From positions 37,355 to 101,354 of the forward strand of contig JBFKVA010000002.1 of the NCBI GenBank assembly GCA_041635475.1: a stretch of DNA of 64,000 bases, read 5' to 3'. Below are positions 8,789-47,569 of this stretch, one piece after another; the first letter of the stretch is position 1; the number at the start of each line of letters is the position of its first letter. Source of the DNA: Acidimicrobiia bacterium (GTDB taxonomy: Bacteria > Actinomycetota > Acidimicrobiia > Spongiisociales > JAENVV01). A program made the translations under genes and the position numbers. The notes below the pieces were generated by a model. It saw only the letters and a list, made by a program, of their open reading frames with translations. It made no database searches and was not told where the DNA came from.

Positions 8789-9513
8789 GGGAGGGCCTCC
8801 AGGTCCTCCACGGCGGCGCGAATGAGGTCGGGACGGACGAGGTGAATGTCGTGCCCGACCCCCGGTTCGATGTGGGCGGTCGAGGCGACCGTGAGCAGCT
8901 TGCGTGCCTCCTCGACGATCCACGCCCCGGCCGCGGTGTCGTCGCGCCCCCAGACGAACCGAACCGGGGCGCGCAACGCGGCGAGTTCGCCCTCGTACGT
9001 CTCGCCCACGGCCCGGACGAGCACGCCGCGCATCACGCCCGACGCGGCCCGATAGTCGGCGGAACCGTGTCGCCGACGCGCCCGCTCCAGCCGCTCGTCG
9101 CCAACGAGTCCGAACCGATGGGTCCATCGCAGGACCCGGTAGGCCGGGGCCGGTCGGACGGCCGGCGCCCGCCGCAGGAGTGGGACACCGGCGAGCACGA
9201 GACCCTTGACCGGGTGGTCCGCTGCCAGGCAGACGGCCACCCGTCCACCGAACGAATGCCCGAGGACCACCGGCGGATCGGTGAACGAATCGAGCACGGG
9301 GGCCACCGCCGCGGCGTACTCCCTGGCACCCCACGCGTGGGGCGGCGGCGGCGAGGCGCCGAAGCCGGGGAGGTCGATCGCGATCGCGTCGATCCCGTCC
9401 AACACGGCCGCGAAGTCGGTGCGATCACGGCCCCAGCCGTGGAGGGCGAGCACTCGTGGGCTCGCTCCTCGGACGTCTCCGAAGAGCTGGTCGGTGAGGG
9501 CCTTCAGCGCCAC
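8785..9513 (-). CDS. alpha/beta hydrolase fold protein
   Basis: MALKALTDQLFG...RVLALHGWGRDRTDFAAV...VLGHSFGGRVAV has a GHSFGG nucleophile elbow and ends VGHDIHLVRPDL. Confidence 0.8.
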   Translation of the reverse strand: MALKALTDQLFGDVRGASPRVLALHGWGRDRTDFAAVLDGIDAIAIDLPGFGASPPPPHAWGAREYAAAVAPVLDSFTDPPVVLGHSFGGRVAVCLAADHPVKGLVLAGVPLLRRAPAVRPAPAYRVLRWTHRFGLVGDERLERARRRHGSADYRAASGVMRGVLVRAVGETYEGELAALRAPVRFVWGRDDTAAGAWIVEEARKLLTVASTAHIEPGVGHDIHLVRPDLIRAAVEDLEALP

Positions 9514-9516
9514 GTA

Positions 9517-10299
9517 TCAGCCGGGGATCCCGGCGGCGAGGGCGTGGAAACCACCGTCGACGTGGACGACCTCGCCGGTGGTCATGGGAGCCCAGTCACT
9601 CAGGAGGATGGCCACCATCCGGGCCACGGGCTCCGGGTTGGTCTGGTCCCAGGGGAGCGGCGCCCTGTCCGCCCACACGCCCTCGAACACCTCGAAGCCG
9701 GGAATCGACTTGGCGGCCATGGTCTTGAGCGGTCCCGCCGAGACGGCGTTGACCCGAATGCCCTTGGGTCCGAGGTACCCGGCGAGGTAGCGCGTCGTCG
9801 CCTGCAGGGCCGCCTTGGCGACGCCCATCCAGTCGTACCCCGGCCAGGCCTGGGAGTTGTCGAAGTCGAGGGTCACGAGCGCCCCTCCCCCGGCCTTTTC
9901 CATGAGGGGAAGGAGACCCATGGCGAGGGTCTTGTAGGAGAAGGCCGAGACGCCGAACGTGGTGGAGGCGCTCTCGGCGGTCGTGTGGAGGAAGTTCCCG
10001 CCGAGGGCATCGGCGGGCGCGAAGCCGATCGAGTGCAGGCCACCGTCGACCCCACCCCACCTGCGGTCGAGTTCCGAGGCGAGGTCGGCCATGTGGGCGT
10101 CGTTCATGATGTCGAGTTCGAACACATCGGGAGGACTGGGAAGCCGGTGGGCGGTGCGTTCAGTGATCCGCAGACCGCGACCGAACCCGGTGAGAACGAG
10201 GTCGGCTCCCTGCTCCTGGGCGATGCGGGCCGAGTGAAAGGCGATTGAGTCGGGGTTGAGGACCCCGGTGATGACGAGGCGCTTGCCTTTCAGGAACAC
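9517..10299 (-). CDS. inhA: NADH-dependent enoyl-ACP reductase, InhA/FabI type
   Basis: The start is a GTG at 10299 with AAAGGAGGG 6 nt upstream. MFLKGKRLVITGVLNPDSIAFHSARIAQEQGADLVLTGF is close to M. tuberculosis InhA ([35 protein letters not shown]). The N-terminal 135 aa of ORF 9517..10704 is junk. Confidence 0.85.
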   Translation of the reverse strand: MFLKGKRLVITGVLNPDSIAFHSARIAQEQGADLVLTGFGRGLRITERTAHRLPSPPDVFELDIMNDAHMADLASELDRRWGGVDGGLHSIGFAPADALGGNFLHTTAESASTTFGVSAFSYKTLAMGLLPLMEKAGGGALVTLDFDNSQAWPGYDWMGVAKAALQATTRYLAGYLGPKGIRVNAVSAGPLKTMAAKSIPGFEVFEGVWADRAPLPWDQTNPEPVARMVAILLSDWAPMTTGEVVHVDGGFHALAAGIPG

Positions 10300-10403
10300 G
10301 ACATCCCTCCTTTGCTGAGGGGACCACTGTAGGGCAGGGAGCCCCTGGTTGGATGCGAGGCTCCCCCGGGCGCCGCGCCGAGGGCCGGCCCCTACCGCCC
10401 GGC

Positions 10404-35588: not shown

Positions 35589-36737
35589 TCAGTGCGTGAT
35601 CGCCCTCCGGTAGGCCCATGTGGCCACGGCCAGGAGCCCCACGGCGATGGCGGCCAGCACTCCGATCTCGTCGGTCACGTCGGCGATGGTCCCGTCGGTG
35701 AACAGCAGGTCGCGGAACCCGCGCAAGGCCCAGTAGTGGGGGGTGAACCGGGCGATTCGCTGCACGGTGTCGGGGAAGAGCTCGTAGGGGAGCATTGATC
35801 CCCCGAGCGCACCGAGCCCGATGCCCAGCATCACCCCGACGCCCCCTGCCTGCTGATCGTTCTGGAGGAGGGACCCGAGCAGGATCCCGGCTGCAGTCGA
35901 GACGAGCGCGAAGACGCCGATGACGGCCGCCGAGCCGAGTGGATCACCCCAATCGACGCCGAACATGAAGGCCGTGGCGAGGATGATGAACAGTGCCTGC
36001 ACGAGTGCGACCGCATATCGCCCCAGCGTCTCGCCAGACACGATGACCCCCACCGGTGTCGGGGAGACGAGCATCCTCGAGGAGACCCCCAGCTTCCGGG
36101 TGAGGATGAGGTGCCCTGACGTCGAGAGCGACGTGAGGAACGTGAAGAGCACGACCTGGCTCGATGCCCCGAAGTCGAACTGCTCGATCTCGCCCTCGAA
36201 GAGCGGCTCACCGCCCCGGCTGACTGCCACGTCGACGACCTCCACGTGGTCCGTGACGAGTCCGATCAGCGCCGACGCCTCGGCCGCCCCCATCCCGCCG
36301 ACGTCGGCGACGTAACGGGCGGCTCGCAACTCGGCAGACATGTCGACCGCAGCGGCCTGGACGGCGGAGCGAAGCTCCAGCCCGAAACCCTCGCGGGAGA
36401 TGAAGGTCACCTGCGTCGGACGATCGGATGCCACCGGGTCGGTGTCCTCGATGACGATCCCTGCCTCCACCTGTCGGAGCTCGACGGCGTCGAGGAGTTC
36501 GTCCGCCGATCCGTACTCGCGTATCCCGAAGCCATCGGAGGACACCGCATCGACCACGACCTGTCCGACCGGGGTTCCGGATCCCACGACGCCGAGTGTC
36601 GGGGCCGAGCCGGCGCCGAACTGCAGGCCGATGAACATGATGATGAGGATCGGGAAGATGAAGACGAAGAAGACATTCTCTTTCTCTCGCAGGAAGCGGC
36701 GGAGTCCGGTCGCGGCGATCGTGAGCACCTTCATCAC
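35589..36737 (-). CDS. ABC-2 type transporter permease
   Basis: Six TM segments with an N-terminal cytoplasmic hairpin and a large extracytoplasmic loop, typical of ABC-2. It overlaps the next permease by 4 bp. Confidence 0.8.
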   Translation of the reverse strand: MMKVLTIAATGLRRFLREKENVFFVFIFPILIIMFIGLQFGAGSAPTLGVVGSGTPVGQVVVDAVSSDGFGIREYGSADELLDAVELRQVEAGIVIEDTDPVASDRPTQVTFISREGFGLELRSAVQAAAVDMSAELRAARYVADVGGMGAAEASALIGLVTDHVEVVDVAVSRGGEPLFEGEIEQFDFGASSQVVLFTFLTSLSTSGHLILTRKLGVSSRMLVSPTPVGVIVSGETLGRYAVALVQALFIILATAFMFGVDWGDPLGSAAVIGVFALVSTAAGILLGSLLQNDQQAGGVGVMLGIGLGALGGSMLPYELFPDTVQRIARFTPHYWALRGFRDLLFTDGTIADVTDEIGVLAAIAVGLLAVATWAYRRAITH

Positions 36738-37879
36738 ACCACTCCAGTCAATCGGGCCCGCCGGAGGAGGGCCACGCCTCCCAACACACCACCGATCCCC
36801 AGGACGACGAGGGCCGGGACGATGACGTCAGCCGGGGACCCGGACCCGGCATTCGCCCCGAACCCCTCCATGAGCCACCGATGGGGGCTGATCCGGGACA
36901 GGACGTCAAGCCACCCTCCATCGCCCACGATGGGGAAGAACACGCCTCCCAGCAGACCCAACACCGTGGCGACGATTCCCCCGAACTGGCCTGCCTGCTC
37001 GGCCGTCCGCGTGATCGTCGCCAGGACCGCGCCCAGTCCCATGGCGGCCATCACCGCCGCCACCGAGAGCAGGACGACGCCCCACACCTCTCCCCAACTG
37101 GCCCCGAGCATGAGCGTTGTGGCCACGACGAGGACCCCCATGGCAACGAGGCCGGTCAGGGCGGCCGCCAGGGTCTTGCCGACGAGGATGGACGCCCGCC
37201 CCACGGGGGCGACCAGGAGTCGCTGGAGCGTGCCTTCCTGTCGCTCCTCGATGACGTTGAGAACGGCGGCCTGCACGCTGAAGAACAGGAAGAAGAGCGC
37301 CATGCCCACCGCCAGGTAGGTCTTGCCGTCCAGGATCCGGGACCCGGCCTCGCCCGCCACGATTTCGATGACCGGGGGCATGGCGGTCAGGCCCTCGAAG
37401 GCCGCGGGGTTGGAAACACCGCCCGCCACGAGCCCGGCCGCCGCCAAGCGGCCGGCGTTCGTCTCCGACGCCAGTGCTTCGGCGATCGACACCGCCACCG
37501 CCGTCGCCAGGCCATCCCCGGCGTTGCCGATCACCTCGAGACTCACCGCCTCCGCCGACGCAACACCGTCCGGGATGAGGATGGCGGCCGAGGCCTCGTT
37601 GTCCTCGACGGCGGCCACCGCCTCCTGGCGGGTCGCCACGAGCTCGACATCCTCGAATCCCGCTTCGTCGACCAGGCCAGCGACGAGGGATGGGCCGATG
37701 AGACCGGTGGCGTCGTGGACGCGGAACGAGGGCTGAAACCTGCCTTCGAAGGCGTCCCCGGCGACCGATGTGAGGATGATGGTGATGGCGAGGGGCGCGA
37801 CGATCGCCATGAGGATCATCGACTTGTCGCGGAGCCGCTGGCGCAGGTCCTTCCACGTGAGGAGGAAGACGGTTCGCAT
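36734..37879 (-). CDS. ABC-2 type transporter permease
   Basis: Same architecture as the previous gene (MRTVFLLTWKDLRQRLRDKSMILMAIVAPLAITIIL...). Confidence 0.8.
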   Translation of the reverse strand: MRTVFLLTWKDLRQRLRDKSMILMAIVAPLAITIILTSVAGDAFEGRFQPSFRVHDATGLIGPSLVAGLVDEAGFEDVELVATRQEAVAAVEDNEASAAILIPDGVASAEAVSLEVIGNAGDGLATAVAVSIAEALASETNAGRLAAAGLVAGGVSNPAAFEGLTAMPPVIEIVAGEAGSRILDGKTYLAVGMALFFLFFSVQAAVLNVIEERQEGTLQRLLVAPVGRASILVGKTLAAALTGLVAMGVLVVATTLMLGASWGEVWGVVLLSVAAVMAAMGLGAVLATITRTAEQAGQFGGIVATVLGLLGGVFFPIVGDGGWLDVLSRISPHRWLMEGFGANAGSGSPADVIVPALVVLGIGGVLGGVALLRRARLTGVV

Positions 37880-37881
37880 GG

Positions 37882-38820
37882 TCAGTCCCTCAGTGCCTTG
37901 CCGGTGAGGTGGAGGAAGACCGCCTCGAGGTCCGGCTCGTGCACGGCCACGCCCTTCACCACGGTGCCGTTCGACACCGCCGCGATGAGCTCCGGCAGCC
38001 TGGCGGCTGCACCTTTGAGTACGACTTCCAGCCGACCCTCGGCTTGGGTGGCCCCGTCGACGCCGGGCAACTCCAACAGGCGCTCCGCCAGCCCTTCCAC
38101 GTGCCCTGCCACCTCGAACGTCACCCGGTCGCGCTGTCCGATGCCTGCAATGAGGTCACGGCGAGTGCCCTCGGCGACGAGCTTGCCGTCGTCGATGATG
38201 CCCACCCGGTCGCAGAGGCGCTCGGCCTCTTCCATGTAATGCGTTGTGTAGAGCACGGCCAGGCCCTCGGTGCCCAGGGCGTCGACCGAGTCGAGGATCG
38301 CGTTGCGGCTCTGGGGATCCACTCCCACCGTGGGCTCATCGAGCATGAGCAGCTTCGGTCCGTGAAGGAGCCCGATCCCGATGTTGAGACGGCGTTTCAT
38401 CCCACCCGAGAACTCGTCGGCCCGGTCCTTGCCCCTGTCGGCGAGACCGGTCAACTCGAGGACTCGATCCACCGCGGCGGTGACCGCGACCCCCCGCATC
38501 CCGTAGAGCTTGGCGAAGAAGGCGAGGTTCTCGAAGGCCGTGAGGTCCGGGTAGATGGCGAGGTCTTGCGGCACGTACCCGAGGGCTCGACGGGCTCCTA
38601 CCGAGCTGACTTCGATCGGCTCCCCGTCGACGATCACCGTGCCGGCGTCCTTGTGGAGCAGCCCGCAGATCATCGAGATGGTGGTGGTCTTCCCGGCCCC
38701 GTTCGGACCGAGGAGGCCGTACGTCTCGCCGGCCGCGATCTCGAACCCGACCCCGTCGACGGCCTTTCGCTCCCCGAAGGACTTGTGGAGCCCTTCGCAC
38801 ACCAGTACGGGTGACATCAT
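37882..38820 (-). CDS. ABC transporter ATP-binding protein
   Basis: GLLGPNGAGKTTTI (Walker A), FSGGMKRRLNIGIGLL (signature) and LLMLDEPTVGVDP (Walker B). Confidence 0.9.
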   Translation of the reverse strand: MMSPVLVCEGLHKSFGERKAVDGVGFEIAAGETYGLLGPNGAGKTTTISMICGLLHKDAGTVIVDGEPIEVSSVGARRALGYVPQDLAIYPDLTAFENLAFFAKLYGMRGVAVTAAVDRVLELTGLADRGKDRADEFSGGMKRRLNIGIGLLHGPKLLMLDEPTVGVDPQSRNAILDSVDALGTEGLAVLYTTHYMEEAERLCDRVGIIDDGKLVAEGTRRDLIAGIGQRDRVTFEVAGHVEGLAERLLELPGVDGATQAEGRLEVVLKGAAARLPELIAAVSNGTVVKGVAVHEPDLEAVFLHLTGKALRD

Positions 38821-39128
38821 GCCTCTCCTTGCACTCTGTTGATCATCTCCTGGAGGGCGCTGAGGTGGGCGCCGAGCGCCCGCGCCCCCTCCGTGGTGGC
38901 CCTCACCGTCGTCAGCGGCTTCTTCCCCTTGTAGCCCTTCGTGATCTCCACCAGGCCGGCCTCCTCGAGGACCGCCAGGTGGCGGCTGAGGTTGCCGTCG
39001 GTGAGCCCCAGTTCGTCCCTGAGGAACGAAAAGGCCGCCGAGCGGACCTCCGCCAGCACGGTCAGGATCCCCAGGCGGGTGCGCTGGTGGACGAGGTCAT
39101 CAAGCCGATCGAAGGCGGCATCGCTCAC
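38817..39128 (-). CDS. winged-helix transcriptional regulator (ArsR/PadR-like), 103 aa
   Basis: RLGILTVLAEVRSAAFSFLRDELGLTDGNLSRHLAVLEEAGLVEITKGYKGKKPLTTVRATTEG has an HTH plus wing pattern. It overlaps its neighbours by 4 bp on both sides. Confidence 0.7.
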   Translation of the reverse strand: MSDAAFDRLDDLVHQRTRLGILTVLAEVRSAAFSFLRDELGLTDGNLSRHLAVLEEAGLVEITKGYKGKKPLTTVRATTEGARALGAHLSALQEMINRVQGEA

Positions 39129-39691
39129 CGCCGTACCATCCGCAGGCCGGCCCCGGCTCCCAGCAACACGCCACCGAACGTGCCGGCCAGGGCGCTGTAC
39201 AGCGGTCCGGGCTCATCGATGAGCGCATACACGGCGACGCCCCACCCGGCCAGGAGTGCAAGCGTCGCCAGCAACTGACGCTGGCCGTCGAGCGTCGCGA
39301 TGACGCCGAACCCGGCCACGAGGACGAGCCACCAGACCAGAACCGCCAGCCGTTCCTCGAACACGAAGAAGCTCCCGAACGTTCCCGTGAACATGAAGAC
39401 GACGACCACGACGTAGGGCCACATCGGGTGCCCGGACGACGCGCCTTGGTCCGCCTTGGCGCCCAACGCGAACGAGGCGATTGCGCCCAGCGGGGCGGCA
39501 ACGATCCAGTAGAAAGAGAGGGTCTCGTTGGCGGACACGAAGGCGACGACCGACCCGAGGAAGATCGCTCCCCACATGAGGAGCATCGCCCAGTTGGCGG
39601 TGAGCATCGAGTGGCGGGTCGAGACCCGGATGCGGTCGAGTTCCGCGAGCAGGGCCTCGGCCTCGGACGCTTTCTCTTCGCGATCAGTCAC
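39125..39691 (-). CDS. membrane protein (4-5 TM), first gene of the regulator/ABC-2 operon
   Basis: GTG start at 39691..39689 (VTDREEKASEAEALLAELDRIR...). Hydrophobic segments include LLMWGAIFLGSVVAFV and YVVVVVFMFTGTFGSFFVF. The transcript appears leaderless (see the promoter feature). Confidence 0.65.
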   Translation of the reverse strand: MTDREEKASEAEALLAELDRIRVSTRHSMLTANWAMLLMWGAIFLGSVVAFVSANETLSFYWIVAAPLGAIASFALGAKADQGASSGHPMWPYVVVVVFMFTGTFGSFFVFEERLAVLVWWLVLVAGFGVIATLDGQRQLLATLALLAGWGVAVYALIDEPGPLYSALAGTFGGVLLGAGAGLRMVRR

Positions 39692-39745
39692 GCAAGTACT
39701 CTATGACACCAAGTACTTGACTGTCAAGAAGCACTTGCCTCGTGT
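39692..39745 (-). promoter_or_regulatory. near-consensus sigma-A promoter on the minus strand (-35 TTGACA at 39727..39722, 18-nt spacer, -10 TAGAGT at 39703..39698), with the TSS predicted at the GTG start codon (leaderless); overlapped by AAGTACTT-type palindromes that are probable operator sites
   Basis: The minus-strand reading is cTTGACAgtcaagtacttggtgtcaTAGAGTacttgcGTG. The 10-bp perfect palindrome caagtacttg (39710-39719) lies in the spacer, aagtact lies between the -10 and +1, and an imperfect caag-n5-cttg repeat lies at 39724-39736. The region is locally AT-rich in a 70% GC genome. Confidence 0.6.
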
Positions 39746-39788
39746 CGGTGGATGGGTGGGCGACGCTCGAACGCTGCCGCTGATCGTG

Positions 39789-41150
39789 TCAGGAACCGAC
39801 GTTCAGCTGGCGAGCCGTCGGCTCCGCACAACAGAACCAGGACTCGGTGAGCCGAGGGGCCACGTCGATGTCGGGAACCGCCGGCATGTCGATGCCCGTG
39901 CGTTGCCCGATGGCGTCGACGAGGGAGCGCATGACGGTGAGGTCCGAGGTGCCGGCCGCGTCGCCTTCCTCCACGATCGCGGCGAGTTCCTGTTGAAGCG
40001 CGTCCATGTGGGGGTCAGCCGGCTCCCACTGGAACCCCAGCATCTCCGGGTCGTAGCCACGCAGATGGGGGCCGAGTTCCGGAAGGTCGAGCATCAGGGA
40101 CCCATCCGGGATGAGGAGTCTGATCGCCAGCTGGATCGGGTCCACGCTCCCCCACAGGTTCGACTCGTCCACGAAGCGAACGATCTGGGCGAGATGGGCT
40201 GGCTTCGTCCAGGGGGTGAACGGGAGCCATGTGGGCCGCACATCAATCCCGGCGTCTCGGAGGATCGTCACCGCCTTCGACATGTCAGTCACGGTGTGGC
40301 CCTTGTCGAGGAGCTCCAGCAGGCGATCATCGGCCTGCTCGAAGGCGCTCACCACGAACCGGACCCCAAGGCTGCGGAGGGTGGGCCAGAGGTCGGCATG
40401 GTCCAGGATGTGCGAGACCTTCACGGTCACATCCACCGAGACGTCGCCGACCTCCGACCGGACTCCCTCCAGGGTCCGGATCGCGTGCGCCGGTGCGTTG
40501 AGGAAGTCCGGGTCACCGAACGTCAGGTGCTGCGCGCCCGCTTCGACTTGTCGCATTGCGTCGGCCACGACGATGTCGGCGGCAACGATCCGGAGACGGC
40601 CGTCGTAGATGGTCGGGAGTGGGCAGTGCCGGCAGCGGTGCCGGCAGCCATGGGTTGCCTCCACGTAGCCAGCCGCAACCTCGGTGCCTCGGTCCCTGAA
40701 CTTCGCGTAGGACCCGAGCGGCGGAAGGGAATCCCGGGCTGGCAGGGCATGGCGGGTCCGGCCCAACTCGACCCGGACGGCGTCGCTCCCCTTGCCCGAC
40801 ACCCACTCGACAAGGGCTTCCTCATACTCGCCCGCGATGCGGATGTCGGCGATCGATCCGACCGCGTCGTCGGATCCGACGGTTGCGTAGAGCCCGTAGA
40901 ACGCAAGGGGGAGGTCGGGACGGCGCTCCTTGACTCGACGGGCCAGTGCAACACCCAAGCGCATCGCCGTGTGCATGGGAACCGAGATCGCGACTCGGTC
41001 GGCCCACTCCACCGACTCGAGGGCAAGATCCTCGACAGACACGTCCAGCGTGCGGACCTCGTGTCCCGCCTCGGCGAGGGCCCCAGCCGGGGCGGCGAGA
41101 TGGAGCGGCTGGTGACCGAGTTCGTAGGTGGAGATGAGCAGGACCTTCAT
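39789..41150 (-). CDS. radical SAM protein with C-terminal CCAEP tail (CUAEP/CCAEP-tail radical SAM family), with an N-terminal B12-binding-like/flavodoxin-like domain
   Basis: CRHRCRHC (CxxxCxxC) lies in ATHGCRHRCRHCPLPTIYDG. The C-terminus is ...LTESWFCCAEPTARQLNVGS, and the DNA reads TGT TGT (Cys-Cys, not TGA). The ATG at 41150 overlaps the stop of the upstream gene (ATGA). Confidence 0.85.
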   Translation of the reverse strand: MKVLLISTYELGHQPLHLAAPAGALAEAGHEVRTLDVSVEDLALESVEWADRVAISVPMHTAMRLGVALARRVKERRPDLPLAFYGLYATVGSDDAVGSIADIRIAGEYEEALVEWVSGKGSDAVRVELGRTRHALPARDSLPPLGSYAKFRDRGTEVAAGYVEATHGCRHRCRHCPLPTIYDGRLRIVAADIVVADAMRQVEAGAQHLTFGDPDFLNAPAHAIRTLEGVRSEVGDVSVDVTVKVSHILDHADLWPTLRSLGVRFVVSAFEQADDRLLELLDKGHTVTDMSKAVTILRDAGIDVRPTWLPFTPWTKPAHLAQIVRFVDESNLWGSVDPIQLAIRLLIPDGSLMLDLPELGPHLRGYDPEMLGFQWEPADPHMDALQQELAAIVEEGDAAGTSDLTVMRSLVDAIGQRTGIDMPAVPDIDVAPRLTESWFCCAEPTARQLNVGS

Positions 41151-42367
41151 CGGGCCAACTCCGAGAGCGCCGTCAACAGCCGATCGACTTCATCGACGGT
41201 GTTGTAGTGGAGGAACCCGACCCTGACAAGGCCCCCTGTCGACAACCGATCCAACCGGCGCATGACCTCGAGGGCGTAGTAGTGACCGTCCCAGACGAAG
41301 AGGCCCTGGGCACCGAGTCGGCGCGCCGTCTCCCCTGGCGTCGTCCCGTCGACCTCGATGGCAAACGTGGGCGTCCGCAGCCGTTCGGTCCCCGGCCCGA
41401 ACAATGTCACGCCGTCGATGGCTTCGATTCCTGCCAGGAACCGGCCCGCCAACCGGTCGGTGTGGGCGGAGGCAGCGCCAATACCCGAGACGAGACGCGA
41501 CCGGCGATCGGGCCCCTCCCCCAGCGATGCCAGGTACTCGACCGCCGCCGTGACACCCGCCAGCAGTTCGAAGGGCGGCGTGCCTGCCTCCCACGACCCA
41601 GGGGCGGTGGAAGAGGCCGGTCGAATGTGCACCGGCTCAACGGCATCGACGACCCTTTCACCCAGGTGGAGGACCCCAACGTGGGGGCCGTGGAACTTGT
41701 ACGCGCTCGCCACCAGGAAGTCGCAGTCCAGGCGTTGCACGTCGATGACGCCGTGGGGAGCGAAGTGAACGGCGTCCACGAACGTCAGCGCCCCCACCCG
41801 CCTGGCGGCGGCGCATGCCTCGATCACCTCCGGGATGGTCCCCACGGCGTTGGAGGCGTGGGTGAGTGCCAGCAGCTTGGTCCGGTCGGTGAGCACGGCC
41901 TCGACCCTGCCGAGGGCACACCCGTCGTCCGGGTCGAAGTCGACCCAGCGCACCGTGGCCCCCGACTCCTCGGCGGCGAGCAGCCACGGACTCACGTTGG
42001 CGTCGTGGTCGAGTCGGGTGAGGACGAGTTCGTCACCCGGGCTCCATTGCCGGGCCAGGACCCGGGCTGCGGCCAGGGTGAGGGCCGTCATCGACGGGCC
42101 GAACGCGATCTGCTCGCCGCTCGGCGCGTTGAAGAGATCCGCCATGGCCGAGCGGGCACCCTCGATGATCTCTGCCGCGGATTCGGAGGCGACGAAGTGA
42201 CCGCCAAGGTTGGAGACCCCCGTCGACAGGACCGAGCCGATGGCGTCGATCACCGGTTGCGGGCACTGCGAGCCTCCCGGCCCGTCGAACCACGCGGCCG
42301 CCCGCCCGTCCACGGTTCGGCGCAGCGCCGGGAACAGCGAGCGCACACCCGCAACGTCGAGGCTCAT
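41147..42367 (-). CDS. SufS-like class V PLP-dependent enzyme (cysteine desulfurase family) lacking the catalytic cysteine
   Basis: It starts MSLDVAGVRSLFPALRRTVDGRAAAWFDGPGGSQCPQPVIDAIG (like SufS VRADFPVL...YLDSAASAQKP). ASAYKFHGPHVGVLH carries the PLP lysine (SufS SGHKLYGPTGIGVLY). The segment GLFVWDGHYYALEVM aligns to SufS GIAVRTGHHCAMPLM, so the active-site Cys is replaced by Tyr. ATGA overlaps occur at both ends. Confidence 0.85.
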   Translation of the reverse strand: MSLDVAGVRSLFPALRRTVDGRAAAWFDGPGGSQCPQPVIDAIGSVLSTGVSNLGGHFVASESAAEIIEGARSAMADLFNAPSGEQIAFGPSMTALTLAAARVLARQWSPGDELVLTRLDHDANVSPWLLAAEESGATVRWVDFDPDDGCALGRVEAVLTDRTKLLALTHASNAVGTIPEVIEACAAARRVGALTFVDAVHFAPHGVIDVQRLDCDFLVASAYKFHGPHVGVLHLGERVVDAVEPVHIRPASSTAPGSWEAGTPPFELLAGVTAAVEYLASLGEGPDRRSRLVSGIGAASAHTDRLAGRFLAGIEAIDGVTLFGPGTERLRTPTFAIEVDGTTPGETARRLGAQGLFVWDGHYYALEVMRRLDRLSTGGLVRVGFLHYNTVDEVDRLLTALSELAR

Positions 42368-43074
42368 GGAGCGAGCAGCTCGGGGAGGATCTCGCCGGCA
42401 GGTCCCAGCACCTCCGCGTCGGCCAAGGGAGACGCCGCGGAACGTTCCGTGTTGACGACGACGATGCGGGCACCGCCTTCGCGGGCGACGCCGATGAGGC
42501 CCGCCGCCGGGTACACCTCGGCGGAGGTGCCGACCACAACGACGGCGTCGGCCGCCGCGATCGACAGATGGGCTCGCATCCACTCCCGCTCCGGGAGCGT
42601 CTCTCCGTACCAGACGACCGACGGACGCATCGGCGCTCCACACATCGGGCAGGGCCGGAACCCCTTCGGGTGCAGCGGGTCGACGTCCTCCTCGTGGCCA
42701 CACTCGGCGAAGCAGTGGTCACGGTCGATGTGCCCGTGGAGATGAATCACGTCCACGGCTCCGGCCTTCTCCAGCAACCGATCGATGTTCTGGGTGACAT
42801 GGATCATGCCGGGTCGGGAGGCAAGGGCGAGATGCGCCGGGTTCGGGTCGGCCGCACCGATGAACGTCCGCCGCTCGTCGTACCAGGAGATCACACCCTC
42901 GGGGTCTTCGCGGAATCCGTCGATCGAGGCCATCTTCATGGGGTCGACCTTCGTCCAGATACCATCGGTGTCCCGGAACGTGTGGATCCCAGACTCGCGG
43001 GACAGCCCGGCGCCCGAGAACGAGACGAGGTGTTCGGCGTCGGCGAGGAGCTGCCGGGCGCGGGTGAGCGGCAT
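42364..43074 (-). CDS. cobB: NAD-dependent protein deacylase (Sir2/CobB family)
   Basis: GAGLSRESGIHTFRD, the catalytic HLHGHIDRDHC, the Zn ribbon CFAECGHEED...CPMCGAPMRPSVVWYGE and the trailing VVGTSAEVYPAAGL are present. The start is the ATG at 43074. Confidence 0.85.
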   Translation of the reverse strand: MPLTRARQLLADAEHLVSFSGAGLSRESGIHTFRDTDGIWTKVDPMKMASIDGFREDPEGVISWYDERRTFIGAADPNPAHLALASRPGMIHVTQNIDRLLEKAGAVDVIHLHGHIDRDHCFAECGHEEDVDPLHPKGFRPCPMCGAPMRPSVVWYGETLPEREWMRAHLSIAAADAVVVVGTSAEVYPAAGLIGVAREGGARIVVVNTERSAASPLADAEVLGPAGEILPELLAP

Positions 43075-43130: not shown

Positions 43131-45128
43131 CTACGGAAGCTCGATCGTGTGCGCCACCGTCGCCGTGGTCCGAGTGCCACCCACCACGACAGGAAGTTCG
43201 ATCCGGGCCTGCTCGAACAGGCAGATCGACTCGGCGGCCGCGTCGCAGTACACAAGGCTGAGTTCGAGCGTGAACCCGCCGTCCTGCCGCACAACCGCGT
43301 CGAAGACGAGCGGGAGGTCGGGATCGGTCACCGTCACGTCGCCTCCGGTCACCGTTCCGGCCGTGGCATCCCACGAGAACGACGCGGGCGCTTCGGGGTT
43401 GAGCTTGTACCCGGTGGGGAAGACGATGTCGACCTCGAAGGTGACGGCTCCCTCCGCCAAGGTCGTCGGTTCGAGCCGGGTCCCCACCGCGGGCGTGAAC
43501 GGCCGGAAGCCCTCGATGCCCTTGAGCACGAGCGTGTCGGCTTCACCGGTGGCAAGATCGAACACCCGGATGGCGTGGTTGTTCGTGTCGGCGATGTAGA
43601 GGACACCGTCGGCAACGGACAGCCCCCCGGGTTCGTCGAACCGGGCGTCCGCGCCGTCCGCCCATCCCGCCACCCCCCCGGCCAGCGTCTCGACCGTCCC
43701 CGTGTGCGGGTCGACGAGCCTCAGGGCGTCGTTGTAGGTATCGGCCACGTAGAGGAGACCATCCCACCACACGACGCCAAGCGGGTGCTGGAACCTTGCG
43801 GCCGAGCCGACGCCGTCCCTGAGCCCGAACGTGAAGAGGTCGTCGGCGGCCCCCGCCACCAGCCGCACCTCCTCCCCGGCGACGAGTCGAATCGAGCTCG
43901 ACTCGGAGTCGGCGAAGTAGACGGTCCCGTCGGGAGCCACGGTCACCCCGGATGGCTGGGCCAACTCGGCCTCAAGGCGGGGTCCGTTGGCCGTCGACTC
44001 CCGACCGTTGCCGACCCACGGCTCGACGATCGAAGCGTCGGGATCGAACTCCCACAACTGGTGGCTCCCGGCCATGGCCACGACGAGGGAACCGGCCTCC
44101 GTGAAGGCGAGGTCCCACGGTGAGTGGAGGGCAGCAAACGCCGCCGGGCCCCCGGCCGGCGGCCACCTTCCCTGGTTCCCGGTCCCGGCCACGGTGGTCA
44201 CGAGGCCAGTGGCGAGATCGATGCTCCGAATGGCATGGTTCCCGGTGTCGGCGACGAACAGCACACCGTCGCCGAACGCCAGTCCCTGGGGCGCGGCCAG
44301 GCCGGCCTCCAAGCCGACACCATCCACGAACGACTCCCGCCCGCTGCCGAACACCGCCTCGACCGCGCCGGTGAGGCGGTCGGCGACGACGACCTGGTGG
44401 TGACCCGTGTCGCTGATGGCCACCCGCCGTCCTCCCGGTTCGACCTCCACCTTGCCCGGATAGAACAGCACCGACTCGGGGGCTCGCTCCACCGCGGTCG
44501 TGAAGCGGCCGGGGGCGAGGATGCCTGCGGCGCCGGAAACGATCTCGGCGATGACGGGGGCCACGACCTCATACACGCCCTCCCCTTCCAGTCGGCCCAC
44601 CAGTGTGCCGTCCGGGTGGATGAGCCACACGGTGGGCCACGCCCGCACGTCGTACGATCTCCAGATCTCGAACTCGGTGTCGTTGACCACGGGATGCTCG
44701 ATCCCGTATCGGAGGACGACGTCCCTGATGCCTTCCGTGCCCCGCTCACCGTCGAACTTGGCGGAGTGGACACCGATCACCACGAGTTCCTCGGGGTACT
44801 CGGCCTCGAGTCGCTTGAGATCGGGAATGATGTGGATGCAGTTGACGCATCCGTACGTCCAGAAGTCGAGCAGCACCACCCTGCCTCGGAGTTCGTCGAG
44901 CGAGATCGGGTGATCGGTGTTCACCCAGTCGAGGCCGGTGGGGAACGCGGGCGCGGTCATCGCCCCGTCGTCCTCGGGAGCCGCCCCCGGCGTCGACGCC
45001 ACGGTCACGCCCGGACCGCCGTCGCGGACCGGGGTCGCTTCGTCGGCGACGGGGGTACAGGCGGCCATCGAGAAACCGACGACCACAACGACTGCCAGGG
45101 TCCGCATGACCACAGGATGGCACCGCAC
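43131..45128 (-). CDS. secreted lipoprotein with a thioredoxin-like (redoxin) domain followed by an NHL-repeat beta-propeller
   Basis: A lipobox (VVVVVGFSMAAC) is present. LLDFWTYGCVNCIHIIPDL is a CxxC redoxin. Repeated YFADSESSSIRLV, YVADTYNDALRLVD and YIADTNNHAIRVFD are NHL repeats. Confidence 0.8.
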   Translation of the reverse strand: MRCHPVVMRTLAVVVVVGFSMAACTPVADEATPVRDGGPGVTVASTPGAAPEDDGAMTAPAFPTGLDWVNTDHPISLDELRGRVVLLDFWTYGCVNCIHIIPDLKRLEAEYPEELVVIGVHSAKFDGERGTEGIRDVVLRYGIEHPVVNDTEFEIWRSYDVRAWPTVWLIHPDGTLVGRLEGEGVYEVVAPVIAEIVSGAAGILAPGRFTTAVERAPESVLFYPGKVEVEPGGRRVAISDTGHHQVVVADRLTGAVEAVFGSGRESFVDGVGLEAGLAAPQGLAFGDGVLFVADTGNHAIRSIDLATGLVTTVAGTGNQGRWPPAGGPAAFAALHSPWDLAFTEAGSLVVAMAGSHQLWEFDPDASIVEPWVGNGRESTANGPRLEAELAQPSGVTVAPDGTVYFADSESSSIRLVAGEEVRLVAGAADDLFTFGLRDGVGSAARFQHPLGVVWWDGLLYVADTYNDALRLVDPHTGTVETLAGGVAGWADGADARFDEPGGLSVADGVLYIADTNNHAIRVFDLATGEADTLVLKGIEGFRPFTPAVGTRLEPTTLAEGAVTFEVDIVFPTGYKLNPEAPASFSWDATAGTVTGGDVTVTDPDLPLVFDAVVRQDGGFTLELSLVYCDAAAESICLFEQARIELPVVVGGTRTTATVAHTIELP

Positions 45129-45192: not shown

Positions 45193-45639
45193 ATGCCCGA
45201 AGACAGCAACGCGTTCCTCACGAGCCGAGATGACCTTCGGGTTCCCACCAAGAATGTCGACGTCACGATCTACCTCATCGACGGCTCCCAACTGACCGGA
45301 CACGTCTTCGCCGATCCGCAGGAGGACGACGCCAGCGACGCGGTCGTGACGCTCTTGTCGACGCCCGAGCCGCTGCTTCGCTTCGAGAGTTCGTTCGGTG
45401 AGTTCCTCCTCGTGGGAAAGGGATCAATCGAGTCCGTCCTCGTGGAGGACGCCGCCTCCAGCGACTCGGCCCGCTGCTTCGTGGCGACGCTCTCCGGGCA
45501 CCGGTTCGTGGGTGGCATCCCCGGCGAACTCCACGCCGAGCGGCTCTCGGATGCGGTTCAGCTCCCCTGGATCGAAGTACTCACCGAGCGCGGAACGCTC
45601 CACGTGCGGTCGGAGCGGATCCTCTGGATCAAGACCTGA
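45193..45639 (+). CDS. hypothetical protein (148 aa)
   Basis: An ORF with normal composition and GC3 bias, with AGGAT upstream of the ATG. No recognizable motif. Confidence 0.5.
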   Translation: MPEDSNAFLTSRDDLRVPTKNVDVTIYLIDGSQLTGHVFADPQEDDASDAVVTLLSTPEPLLRFESSFGEFLLVGKGSIESVLVEDAASSDSARCFVATLSGHRFVGGIPGELHAERLSDAVQLPWIEVLTERGTLHVRSERILWIKT

Positions 45640-45648
45640 GGGGGGTCC

Positions 45649-46260
45649 CTACTTCTTGGACTTCTGGTAGTAGGGGTTCTCCCCGTGGGCGTGGTCGGTG
45701 GCGTCCTCCACCCCAGTGATCTCAGGGATCGCCTCCATGAGGGTGCGCTCGATGCCCTGCTTGAGGGTCACCGACGCCAAGCCACACCCCTGGCATCCGC
45801 CGAGGAGTTCGAGGTAGACGAGGTTGTTCTCGTCGATCGACACGAGCCTGGCTCCGCCTCCGTGGGAGGCGATGGCCGGATTGATCTGGGTCTCCAGGAC
45901 ATGGTGGACCTGGTCGACGAGGGGCCCTTCGAGGTCACCCGGGACACTGCCGGTGATCGCCGGCGACGGGGAGTTGGGGTTGTCGATCGAGAGCCCCGCC
46001 TCGCCGATCCTGAGCACGGCCCCCTCGAGGTTTGGCAGGTCCCGCTCCGGGTGGATGACCGCCAGGTCACCGTGGCGCTCGACCACGTCACCCTCCGCGG
46101 CGTCGGTGACCGGCACGAAGCTCAGCTCGTACGAGAACTGGATCCCCTGGATCCCGCTGATCTCCATCCTCAGTGCGAACTCCCCGTCACCCGGTTCGTT
46201 GTCGCGGATGTCGACGATCATCGCTAGCGCGTCTGGTTCGATGGAGAGTGTTGTAGACAT
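45649..46260 (-). CDS. Fe-S cluster biogenesis protein with an N-terminal IscA/HesB-like domain and a C-terminal NifU-like domain (NfuA-like)
   Basis: An A-type carrier-like N-terminus is followed by the C-terminal LLGGCQGCGLASVTLKQGIERTLMEAIPEI (NifU CxxC motif). Confidence 0.8.
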   Translation of the reverse strand: MSTTLSIEPDALAMIVDIRDNEPGDGEFALRMEISGIQGIQFSYELSFVPVTDAAEGDVVERHGDLAVIHPERDLPNLEGAVLRIGEAGLSIDNPNSPSPAITGSVPGDLEGPLVDQVHHVLETQINPAIASHGGGARLVSIDENNLVYLELLGGCQGCGLASVTLKQGIERTLMEAIPEITGVEDATDHAHGENPYYQKSKK

Positions 46261-46333: not shown

Positions 46334-47569
46334 ATGCCTCGGCTCCTGCTCATCATCCCGGCGTCGACCTACCGGGCCGCGGAGTTCCTTGATGCCACCG
46401 AAGCCGTCGGAGCCGAACCAATCGTCGCCACCAATTCCAACCCGCTCCTGGCCATGCGCCTCGGCGACCGGTTCATCGACCTCGACGACTGCAGCACGGA
46501 CGAGATCGTCCGGAGGGCGAAGTCACTGGCCCCGATCCACGGCGTCCTGAGCCCCGACGATTCGATGGTGGTCCTGGCCAACGCGGTCGCCTCCGAGTTG
46601 GGTCTCGAGTCCAACCCGCCGTGGGCGGTGGCCGCCACCAAGAACAAGGCGATGCTGCGGCGTGCCCTGGACGGAATCGCCCCCCAACCGGCCTACCTCG
46701 TCGTCACCGCCCGGGATGATGTGACGGCCGCGGTGGCCGGCATCGGACCACCGGTGGTCATGAAGCCCCTGTCCCTGTCGGGGAGCCAGGGTGTCATTCG
46801 GGTCGACGATGCCTCCCAGGCCCCGGAGGTCGAGGAGCGGATTCGCCGCATCCTGGCGGCCCGCGGCTCCAACCCCGACGAACCACTCCTCGTCGAACGC
46901 TTCGTCCCCGGTCCCGAGGTGGCGGTCGAGGGTTTGCTCACCCGTGGTCGTCTCGAGATCCTGGCGGTGTTCGACAAGCCGGACCCGCTCGACGGGCCCT
47001 ACTTCGAGGAGACGATGTACGTGACCCCCTCCCGGCACGGCCTCGACGTGCTCGAGGCCGTCCGGCGGACGGTCCAAGCCGCGTGTGACGGATTGGAACT
47101 CGCAACCGGTCCGATCCATGCCGAGCTCCGCATCCACGACTCGGCTGCGATCCTCATCGAGATGGCGGCCCGTCCCATCGGGGGTCGGTGCGGGACGGCG
47201 CTTCGTTTCGGGGCAGGTGTCAGCCACGAGATGGTCCTGGCCCGGGCAGCTCTGGGCATGAGGGACGACGTCCACCACGCGGCCGGGTCCGCCGGATCCC
47301 TCATGATCCCCATTCCCCGCAGCGGTGTGCTCCGAGCCGTCCACGGCCTGGAGGAAGCCCGGGGTGTCGCCGGCATCACCGGGATCGACATCTCGGTGCC
47401 TTTCGGGGAGCTGATCCTCGCCCTCCCCGAAGGTCATCGCTACCTCGGCTTCGCCTATGCCTCGACGCCGTCGCCGGCCGAGACGGAGCGGGCCCTGCGC
47501 CGGGCCATGGCGCTCATCCGCCCCCAGATCGAACCCGGCGGCGGACAGGACGTAGGCTCCCGCCCATGA
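46334..47569 (+). CDS. ATP-grasp domain protein (ligase of unknown substrate)
   Basis: VVMKPLSLSGSQGVIRVDD...LLVERFVPGPEVAVEGL...HAELRIHDSAAILIEMAARPIGG has the ATP-grasp fold order (K-loop, E, catalytic E/N region). Confidence 0.75.
   Translation: MPRLLLIIPASTYRAAEFLDATEAVGAEPIVATNSNPLLAMRLGDRFIDLDDCSTDEIVRRAKSLAPIHGVLSPDDSMVVLANAVASELGLESNPPWAVAATKNKAMLRRALDGIAPQPAYLVVTARDDVTAAVAGIGPPVVMKPLSLSGSQGVIRVDDASQAPEVEERIRRILAARGSNPDEPLLVERFVPGPEVAVEGLLTRGRLEILAVFDKPDPLDGPYFEETMYVTPSRHGLDVLEAVRRTVQAACDGLELATGPIHAELRIHDSAAILIEMAARPIGGRCGTALRFGAGVSHEMVLARAALGMRDDVHHAAGSAGSLMIPIPRSGVLRAVHGLEEARGVAGITGIDISVPFGELILALPEGHRYLGFAYASTPSPAETERALRRAMALIRPQIEPGGGQDVGSRP

Follow-up and report, generated by a model that had tools for sequence, protein, structure and literature searches.

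A window of 64 kb from an Acidimicrobiia bacterium (contig JBFKVA010000002.1; the window is the whole stretch of 64,000 nucleotides that was analysed, and all coordinates refer to it) carries three adjoining genes for a Sir2/CobB-type NAD-dependent deacylase, a cysteine desulfurase-like pyridoxal 5'-phosphate (PLP) enzyme and a radical S-adenosylmethionine (SAM) protein that ends in a Cys-Cys-Ala-Glu-Pro (CCAEP) tail. We found that this trio is a lineage-specific context and not a conserved three-component system, and that the job of the radical SAM family would not hinge on the PLP enzyme or Sir2. The recurrent partner of the radical SAM protein is an L-amino-acid-ligase-type ATP-grasp enzyme, which the preliminary description of this DNA had overlooked. 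By its profile match the radical SAM protein is an ordinary representative of a family that is catalogued but uncharacterised. The best overall explanation combines an operon confined to one clade, the ATP-grasp enzyme as the partner of the family and a radical chemistry like that of ArsL; we hold this combination tentatively, at somewhat less than an even chance. The features on which the argument rests are as follows.

39789..41150, minus strand: gene for the CCAEP-tail radical SAM protein, 453 aa, ending SWFCCAEPTARQLNVGS
41147..42367, minus strand: gene for the class-V PLP enzyme (TIGR01976), 406 aa, beginning MSLDVAG
42364..43074, minus strand: gene for the Sir2/CobB-type NAD-dependent deacylase, 236 aa, beginning MPLTRARQ
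41147..41150, minus strand: ATGA start/stop overlap of the PLP and radical SAM genes, read from the sequence
42364..42367, minus strand: ATGA start/stop overlap of the Sir2 and PLP genes, read from the sequence
43131..45128, minus strand: gene for an NHL-repeat/thioredoxin-like (NHL-redoxin) probable lipoprotein, its stop 56 bp ahead of the Sir2 ATG
46334..47569, plus strand: gene for an L-amino-acid ligase (LAL)-type ATP-grasp enzyme with ATP-grasp_4 and LAL_C2 domains, 5.2 kb from the radical SAM gene and on the opposite strand
45649..46260, minus strand: gene for an NfuA/NifU-like Fe-S carrier (PF01106; partial match to TIGR03341), which pairs with the ATP-grasp gene
40623..40646, minus strand: CxxxCxxC motif (C169/C173/C176), putative ligands of the SAM-cleaving [4Fe-4S] cluster
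39819..39833, minus strand: tail motif C440-C441-A-E-P, inside the conserved RLTEsWFCCAEPT

Conservation of the trio and the recurrent partner

Gene neighbourhoods were surveyed from both sides of the PLP/radical SAM junction. From the radical SAM side we used one genome per species (80 loci, radical SAM identity 46-55%) and scored neighbours within 8 kb by tblastn; from the PLP side a metagenome scan provided 80 loci (L097-L176), and 176 loci were fetched overall. Within 8 kb of the radical SAM gene, tblastn detected a homologue of the PLP gene at 0/80 loci and of the NHL-redoxin gene at 0/80. Sir2 was present at three of these 80 loci, each time 2.5-4.6 kb off and on the opposite strand. At the PLP-family loci neither the radical SAM gene (0/80) nor Sir2 (0/80) was found, and three closer homologues of the PLP enzyme (58-63% identity) sat in unrelated contexts without either gene. 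A cysteine-desulfurase-like neighbour had been named, with some uncertainty, in the preliminary description as a feature of the family, and this did not hold in the other species surveyed. Nor does the 'system' of Sir2, PLP enzyme and radical SAM protein that was proposed there co-occur beyond one lineage.

That lineage is represented by the window and five further loci (L081, L082, L083, L086 and L096), all of which carry the trio together with the NHL-redoxin gene; the identities of their radical SAM proteins to that of the window are 74, 66, 59, 56 and 53%. The shared block reads ATP-grasp (-), NifU-like (+), NHL-redoxin (+), Sir2 (+), PLP (+) and radical SAM (+), followed by a membrane protein, a helix-turn-helix (HTH) regulator, an ATP-binding cassette (ABC) ATPase, two ABC-2 permeases and a GPAT-like acyltransferase (-). 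Each trio locus has the NHL-redoxin gene as the next gene upstream of Sir2. The start/stop overlap of the Sir2 and PLP genes recurs in 5/5 of the related loci. That of the PLP and radical SAM genes recurs in L081 and L082; in L083, L086 and L096 these two genes are separated by 10, 20 and 41 nt, respectively. In a neighbour-joining tree rooted on ArsL the six trio-bearing radical SAM proteins form one clade nested among other Acidimicrobiia. This monophyly indicates that the trio was assembled once, in a single Acidimicrobiia clade. The same clade also conserves about 12 flanking genes, and the trio is therefore weak evidence of a functional link, having a single origin in a lineage that keeps its surroundings as well. 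The neighbourhood comparison proposed in the preliminary description thus gave a divided answer: the trio is kept in six loci of one clade, and its absence elsewhere, in both surveys, goes part of the way towards what that description had named as a refutation. A functional tie between the PLP enzyme and the radical SAM protein is possible and somewhat doubtful; for Sir2 we consider such a tie improbable.

The gene that recurs beside the radical SAM gene encodes the ATP-grasp enzyme. It stands immediately upstream and on the same strand at 37/80 loci (66/80 have enough upstream sequence), with a median gap of 26 nt and a 4-nt overlap in four loci, and the genomes concerned are labelled Acidimicrobiia, Thermoleophilia and Chloroflexota. 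In one protein (P0362, 850 aa, on an NCBI contig of 16324 bp) the two are fused in frame; its tail reads WFCCAAP, and its ATP-grasp half shares 35% identity with the ATP-grasp protein of the window (E 2e-54). The best PDB matches to the window protein are the L-amino acid ligases BL00235 (E 2e-24) and BacD (E 7e-9), which share its ATP-grasp_4 and LAL_C2 domains; the relationship is nevertheless distant, and the window ATP-grasp gene lies outside the radical SAM operon. A NifU-like homologue is divergent from the ATP-grasp gene in 34/80 loci. A second arrangement occurs in Acidimicrobiia, with AceE (20/80) and an alpha/beta hydrolase (17/80) divergently upstream of the radical SAM gene. Downstream of it, on the same strand, we found an ABC ATPase in 17/80 loci, at a distance of no more than 500 nt in 12 of them, and a permease in 16/80. 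Homologues of the ATP-grasp, NifU-like and ABC genes are all present in the window (ABC genes at 36734..38820, minus strand).

Some other neighbours were seen in these surveys. At ATP-grasp-type loci the gene convergent with the radical SAM gene often encodes a small DsrE/DsrF-like protein (10/80: L002, L004, L009-L013, L051, L069 and L075; Pfam score 21.2 bits, slightly under the cut-off), and a DUF169 protein is convergent with it in 6-10/80 loci (L023, L043, L057, L060, L065 and L074). Thermomicrobium roseum has, next to its radical SAM gene, a PLP aminotransferase gene in divergent orientation and an MFS transporter gene; this aminotransferase was considered as a counterpart of the window PLP enzyme and rejected, as the two are unrelated. 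Two loci with a high-GC ATP-grasp/radical SAM pair, L067 and L071, come from metagenome-assembled genomes labelled 'Bordetella parapertussis' and 'Bifidobacterium breve', and L026 is labelled Burkholderiales. These three labels are probably binning or labelling errors.

The radical SAM protein and its Cys-Cys tail

Hidden Markov model (HMM) searches with all three proteins, a check suggested in the preliminary description, yielded family assignments. The radical SAM protein matched NF040546 with 513.5 bits (cut-off 500; E 4.9e-154), residues 3-450 covering positions 1-467 of the 468 in the model. The 'CUAEP/CCAEP-tail radical SAM' family, which had been named in that description, was thereby confirmed above the curated cut-off. 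The runner-up was the ArsL family NF040542 at 266.6 bits, well below its own cut-off of 450, and the next family reached only 39 bits. ArsL is the only characterised relative of the radical SAM protein, and on these scores the two families are each other's nearest.

The predicted architecture is also as first described, with the CxxxCxxC motif and an N-terminal B12-binding-like Rossmann domain (PF02310, 40.1 bits, cut-off 32.1) ahead of the radical SAM domain (PF04055, 46.1 bits, cut-off 29.5). C169, C173 and C176 are invariant across 30 homologues and align with ArsL. The AlphaFold model has a predicted local distance difference test score (pLDDT) of 91, and the solved folds closest to it are AprD4 and B12-type radical SAM enzymes; a PDB sequence search returned weak ELP3 matches only. 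The family has no assigned function in the Haft preprint (10.1101/2022.07.06.499078), in agreement with the preliminary description, and a literature search for 'CUAEP/CCAEP' found the term mentioned in that preprint only. In its score, its cluster motif, its B12-like N-terminal domain and its WFCCAEP tail the window protein is structurally typical of NF040546. Its genomic context differs from that of the family, with Sir2 and a TIGR01976 PLP gene upstream where the ATP-grasp ligase would be expected.

Residues 437-448 read SWFCCAEPTARQ, and C441 is the position occupied by selenocysteine in other members. A CCAEP-type motif was present in 114/120 of the closest homologues; the other 6/120 stop at ...WFC. 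When the UGA is read through, the CUAEP motif appears in T. roseum and two metagenome lineages, and 14-17 nt past each UGA there is a hairpin; this bears out the selenocysteine variants mentioned in the preliminary description. In T. roseum (L090, NC_011961; radical SAM gene 8935-10371) the in-frame TGA at 10369-10371 is followed by AEPLEDPSGPVASQVRMVDQPLR and a stop, and a GC-rich hairpin starts about 14 nt beyond the UGA; L092 and L095 have comparable hairpins after theirs. As annotated, the T. roseum protein is probably 24 residues short of a full selenoprotein.

We made an exhaustive search of 1.84 billion representatives for relatives of the radical SAM protein. At E<=1e-3 it returned 3183 representatives, of which 336 reached E<=1e-30, some ArsL-type proteins included. 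Among the best 150 representatives, 52 tails were of the CC type, 38 ended ...W[FY]C and are selenocysteine candidates, and two were ArsL-like. Most of the closest relatives (P0003-P0011, P0039 and P0049) have between one and three additional Cys behind CCAEP, at the very end of the chain, in endings such as …DTCC, …GDCC, …SDCSC and …SGCGC, so that the tail has three or four Cys in total, as in ArsL. No extra terminal Cys is present in the window protein (39789-39818) or in its two nearest relatives (…NVGS and …NVTS), and these three have lost it. Mean pLDDT along the modelled tail is 85 for residues 431-440, 69 for 441-450 and 58 for 451-453; the RLTESWFCC segment is thus placed in the model with moderate confidence and not as a disordered end.

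The PLP enzyme, Sir2 and the transcription unit

The PLP enzyme matched TIGR01976 (cysteine desulfurase-like, VC1184 subfamily) at 439.3 bits over residues 4-401 (cut-off 352.35) and the fold-type I class-V domain PF00266 at 214.1 bits, and fell under every SufS/CsdA/IscS cut-off (TIGR01979, 216.3 vs 475.1; PRK09295, 168.5 vs 661; CsdA, 123.4 vs 607). With SufS/CsdA and the selenocysteine lyases it shares the class-V scaffold and the PLP lysine, and it aligns over its full length with Bacillus subtilis SufS (E 2e-54), K224 in SAYKF falling on the SufS Schiff-base lysine. It differs from them in that the catalytic Cys361 of B. subtilis SufS (GHHCA) is replaced by Tyr364 (GHYYA, 41276..41278), as the term 'Cys-less' in the preliminary description had implied, and no SufE/SufU-type acceptor gene adjoins it among the genes examined. 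The corresponding motif, G-x-[YFH]-Y-[AS] with Tyr for Cys, occurs in 92/120 TIGR01976 homologues, and the lack of the catalytic Cys is a common trait of TIGR01976 and not a peculiarity of this gene. Another Cys-less class-V PLP enzyme is the cystine lyase C-DES, which releases a persulfide or selenide. UstD and Fgm3 are likewise SufS-like enzymes that have no persulfide-forming Cys (PDB 9x4u, Fgm3, E 3e-47; 7mkv, UstD, E 4e-33), but past the superfamily level the PLP enzyme has no specific sequence relationship to them; Fgm3 is described as a retro-aldolase (PMC10055224). The literature on Rv3778c and TIGR01976 gives no function.

At the TIGR01976 loci a homoserine dehydrogenase gene lies directly upstream on the same strand in 13/80. 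Other neighbours there are a PNPOx-like protein (14), a SAM hydroxide adenosyltransferase (10), a ribose-5-phosphate isomerase (9) and a PNP-family phosphorylase (7). They may point to a metabolism of C4 amino acids or one related to SAM.

Sir2 scored 126.7 bits against PF02146 and 233 bits against NF001753, slightly under the cut-off of 243. It has the motifs FSGAGLS, VTQNID and LHGH and the Zn-ribbon pairs CFAEC and CPMC, matches Sir2Af2 (PDB 1ma3) over its full length (E 1.4e-49), and is an ordinary small Zn-ribbon deacylase of the CobB/Sir2Af2 type. The NHL-redoxin protein matched the Pfam families NHL, Thioredoxin_8 and AhpC-TSA and has a ResA/TlpA-type CVNC motif and an N-terminus ...VVGFSMAAC. 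Being a probable lipoprotein, and hence extracytoplasmic, it would probably not act on the enzymes in the cytoplasm. The stretch that separates the NHL-redoxin gene from the NifU-like one contains a 148-aa open reading frame (ORF; 45193-45639, plus strand) with no Pfam or NCBIfam match. L081 and L082 conserve it in this place, with 148-149 aa; L083, L086 and L096 lack it.

The sequence bore out the trio of minus-strand genes and the two ATGA overlaps given in the preliminary description, as well as the position of the NHL-redoxin gene 56 bp upstream, a gene that is conserved there along with the trio. The ORF list contains longer GTG starts for Sir2 (43374) and the PLP gene (42703). We preferred the ATG starts because homologues of Sir2 have 236, 233 and 237 aa and those of the PLP enzyme 403-413 aa, and because the HMM matches cover the full length. 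Overlaps of 4 nt also occur at the next two same-strand junctions (39128/39125 and 38820/38817), and likewise in relatives; the overlaps are for this reason unremarkable, a sign of tight operon packing and of no special relationship. No terminator-like site was found between the NHL-redoxin gene and Sir2. These features suggest that the NHL-redoxin, Sir2, PLP and radical SAM genes probably form a real, tightly packed transcription unit, with the NHL-redoxin gene possibly as its first gene. Two further features lie past the radical SAM stop.

39698..39727, minus strand: promoter-like site TTGACA-18-TAGAGT, a consensus match only (10/12), in the 97-bp gap past the radical SAM stop
36734..39691, minus strand: downstream block of a 188-aa membrane protein, an ArsR/HTH_34-type regulator, a DrrA-like ABC ATPase and an ABC-2 permease (Pfam, NCBIfam)

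Because of the promoter-like site, the radical SAM gene is probably the last of its unit, and this arrangement suggests that the genes downstream form a separate one. The downstream block begins with a multi-pass membrane protein without a family match, its gene joined by a 4-nt overlap to that of the HTH_34/ArsR-like regulator (the two together at 38817-39691, minus strand), and a further 4-nt overlap leads from the regulator gene into the ABC ATPase gene. This membrane protein/regulator/ABC ATPase module also follows the radical SAM gene in L035, L054 and L056, which lack the trio. A scan of the whole window at the Rfam gathering thresholds gave zero matches, with no tRNAs and no riboswitch that would hint at a ligand. 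A 559-aa ORF (39528-41207, plus strand) runs antisense to the entire radical SAM gene, and comparable ORFs face the PLP and Sir2 genes. All have the look of shadow ORFs in DNA of 69% GC, not of genes.

Radical chemistry and competing explanations

ArsL cleaves SAM reductively at the C-gamma-S bond to give a 3-amino-3-carboxypropyl radical, which alkylates arsenite bound by three Cys of the C-terminal tail; without the tail product formation is lost and SAM cleavage is kept, and ArsL is described as the sole radical SAM enzyme of canonical fold that makes an aminocarboxypropyl radical from SAM (10.1101/2024.02.01.577332; 10.64898/2026.04.29.721666). The alignment of the window protein with ArsL is full-length, at 33% identity; the architecture matches, both proteins have a Cys-rich C-terminal tail, and the vicinal CC of RCCLKC in ArsL faces the WFCC pair. 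By analogy we propose that a [4Fe-4S] cluster on C169/C173/C176 would cleave SAM reductively, most likely at C-gamma-S, to yield the 3-amino-3-carboxypropyl radical and methylthioadenosine. The docked C-terminal arm would offer a soft atom, a chalcogen or metalloid, chelated by Cys440-Cys441 (Cys-Sec, with selenocysteine, in other members), and this atom would capture the radical to form a 4-substituted 2-aminobutanoate. In most lineages the ATP-grasp ligase would take up this product, possibly to make a dipeptide exported by the adjacent ABC-2 exporter; in the trio clade the Cys-less SufS-like PLP enzyme may handle the amino acid.

We favour this tail-assisted radical capture because ArsL is the nearest relative, the Cys pairs align and the structural model is confident, with the tail placed at moderate confidence. 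The extra terminal Cys of close relatives in the trio clade and one fusion of the radical SAM protein to MerB (P0260, below) also support it. That the product is an amino acid is weakly hinted at by the LAL-type partner, by the aminotransferase and MFS transporter of T. roseum, and by the homoserine dehydrogenase and SAM hydroxide adenosyltransferase neighbours of TIGR01976. For cleavage of SAM to the aminocarboxypropyl radical we see the chances as evenly balanced, and we would put the carriage of an acceptor atom by the tail, taken on its own, at about even too. A broader proposal is that, next to ArsL, the family is another and far larger group of radical SAM enzymes with canonical fold that make the aminocarboxypropyl radical, with a C-chalcogen or C-metalloid bond formed on a tail-held atom, a ligase that makes a peptide, and a PLP enzyme that supplies the atom or tailors the product; this we consider unlikely as a whole.

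Several observations weigh against the preferred explanation. The ArsL-like view of the family is drawn by analogy, and at 33% identity the site of SAM cleavage is not necessarily conserved. The window tail has two Cys, no third downstream and a longer motif, whereas ArsL uses three Cys for As(III). Unlike ArsL, the window protein has no arsM, arsQ or arsN neighbours: tblastn found no ArsM, ArsQ, ArsN1, arsenic transporter or ArsR in the 64-kb window or the 176 loci, apart from the ArsL reference locus L091, the source of the queries. An arsenic pathway at this locus was rejected on these grounds. The ATP-grasp link is not universal, the two selenocysteine-type members examined (four loci) being flanked by unrelated genes; both fusion proteins (P0362 and P0260) are singletons; and conservation of the trio could be plain synteny, like that of the dozen or so genes around it.

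The main rival is that the radical SAM protein is a canonical 5'-deoxyadenosyl radical enzyme that abstracts hydrogen, its CC/CU tail serving as a mobile redox or H-atom-donor arm and not as a carrier of the acceptor. We regard this as unlikely, if seriously competitive: almost all PF04055 enzymes make the 5'-deoxyadenosyl radical, ArsL being described as the exception, and the best structural matches (AprD4, MgmA, OxsB, TokK and MiaB/RimO) are 5'-deoxyadenosine-forming or B12-type. The GCUG tail of thioredoxin reductase and the C-terminal Cys pair of ribonucleotide reductase are mobile redox arms, and the frequent exchange of the tail Cys for selenocysteine (38 candidates among about 90 classifiable representatives) is typical of redox sites. 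On the other hand, no other family comes nearly as close as that of ArsL, the tail Cys pair falls on the substrate-binding tail of ArsL in the alignment, and no reductase or thioredoxin partner recurs beside the radical SAM gene in the 80 loci. An adjacent Cys-Cys or Cys-Sec arm can also shuttle metal, as in MerA, as well as electrons, as in thioredoxin reductase; the likeness is functional only, the enzyme classes being unrelated. Besides the C-terminal Cys pair of MerA, the CU motifs of HgcA and MerT bind metal. A role in which Hg(II) or a comparable metal is bound by the CC/CU tail and the family makes or processes carbon-metal bonds is a candidate, in our judgement a very doubtful one. In the Haft preprint (10.1101/2022.07.06.499078) the CU motif of NF040546 is placed in one group with HgcA, MerT and MerB-like selenoproteins, and in P0260 (on a JGI contig of 8306 bp) a Pro-rich linker joins a radical SAM part with the tail WYCCAEP to a MerB alkylmercury-lyase domain, a second MerB gene lying 3.7 kb downstream. 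The window has an ArsR/SmtB-like regulator and an exporter downstream of the radical SAM gene, but the best match of that regulator is the generic HTH_34 domain; the MerB fusion was seen once, and neither MerB-like genes nor, L091 apart, ars genes were found in the window or the 176 loci.

Two further explanations start from the trio itself. In the one, the PLP enzyme would load sulfur or selenium on the CC tail, via a tail Cys or a C-DES-like persulfide or selenide, for insertion by the radical SAM protein under regulation by Sir2. Gene order and tight spacing (from overlap to 41 nt) hold over 53-95% radical SAM identity, the PLP lysine and SufS-like scaffold are kept, the tail is plausible as a persulfide acceptor, and the weak DsrE-like gene beside the radical SAM gene in 10/80 other loci could fit as well. 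We nevertheless think this relay quite improbable. It meets no co-occurrence from the radical SAM side or from the PLP side; Tyr for Cys is common in TIGR01976, most members of which have no such radical SAM neighbour; and the trio arose once, inside general synteny, with a Sir2 of the generic CobB type. In the other, the trio would be a Sir2-based anti-phage defence module, Sir2 domains being common in defence systems. PADLOC gave no match for Sir2 or the radical SAM protein, the PLP enzyme has only generic similarity to DndA/SspA without partner genes, and the small Zn-ribbon Sir2 belongs to a stable, housekeeping-like syntenic block. These results effectively refute a defence system, to which we assign next to no probability.

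The family and its selenocysteine variants were already known, and the operon is a lineage-specific context of this known, uncharacterised family. The most useful new information is that the ATP-grasp ligase is the recurrent partner of the radical SAM protein, adjoining it in nearly half of the loci surveyed and fused to it once. The partner of choice for co-expression is thus the ATP-grasp ligase, the Sir2/PLP pair being the acquisition of one clade. The interest of the family lies in its being a large, often selenocysteine-containing sister of ArsL, catalogued yet unstudied. If it shares the chemistry of ArsL, carbon-heteroatom bond formation of this kind would be widespread in abundant soil and aquatic Actinomycetota and Chloroflexota, and would perhaps yield a new amino-acid metabolite.

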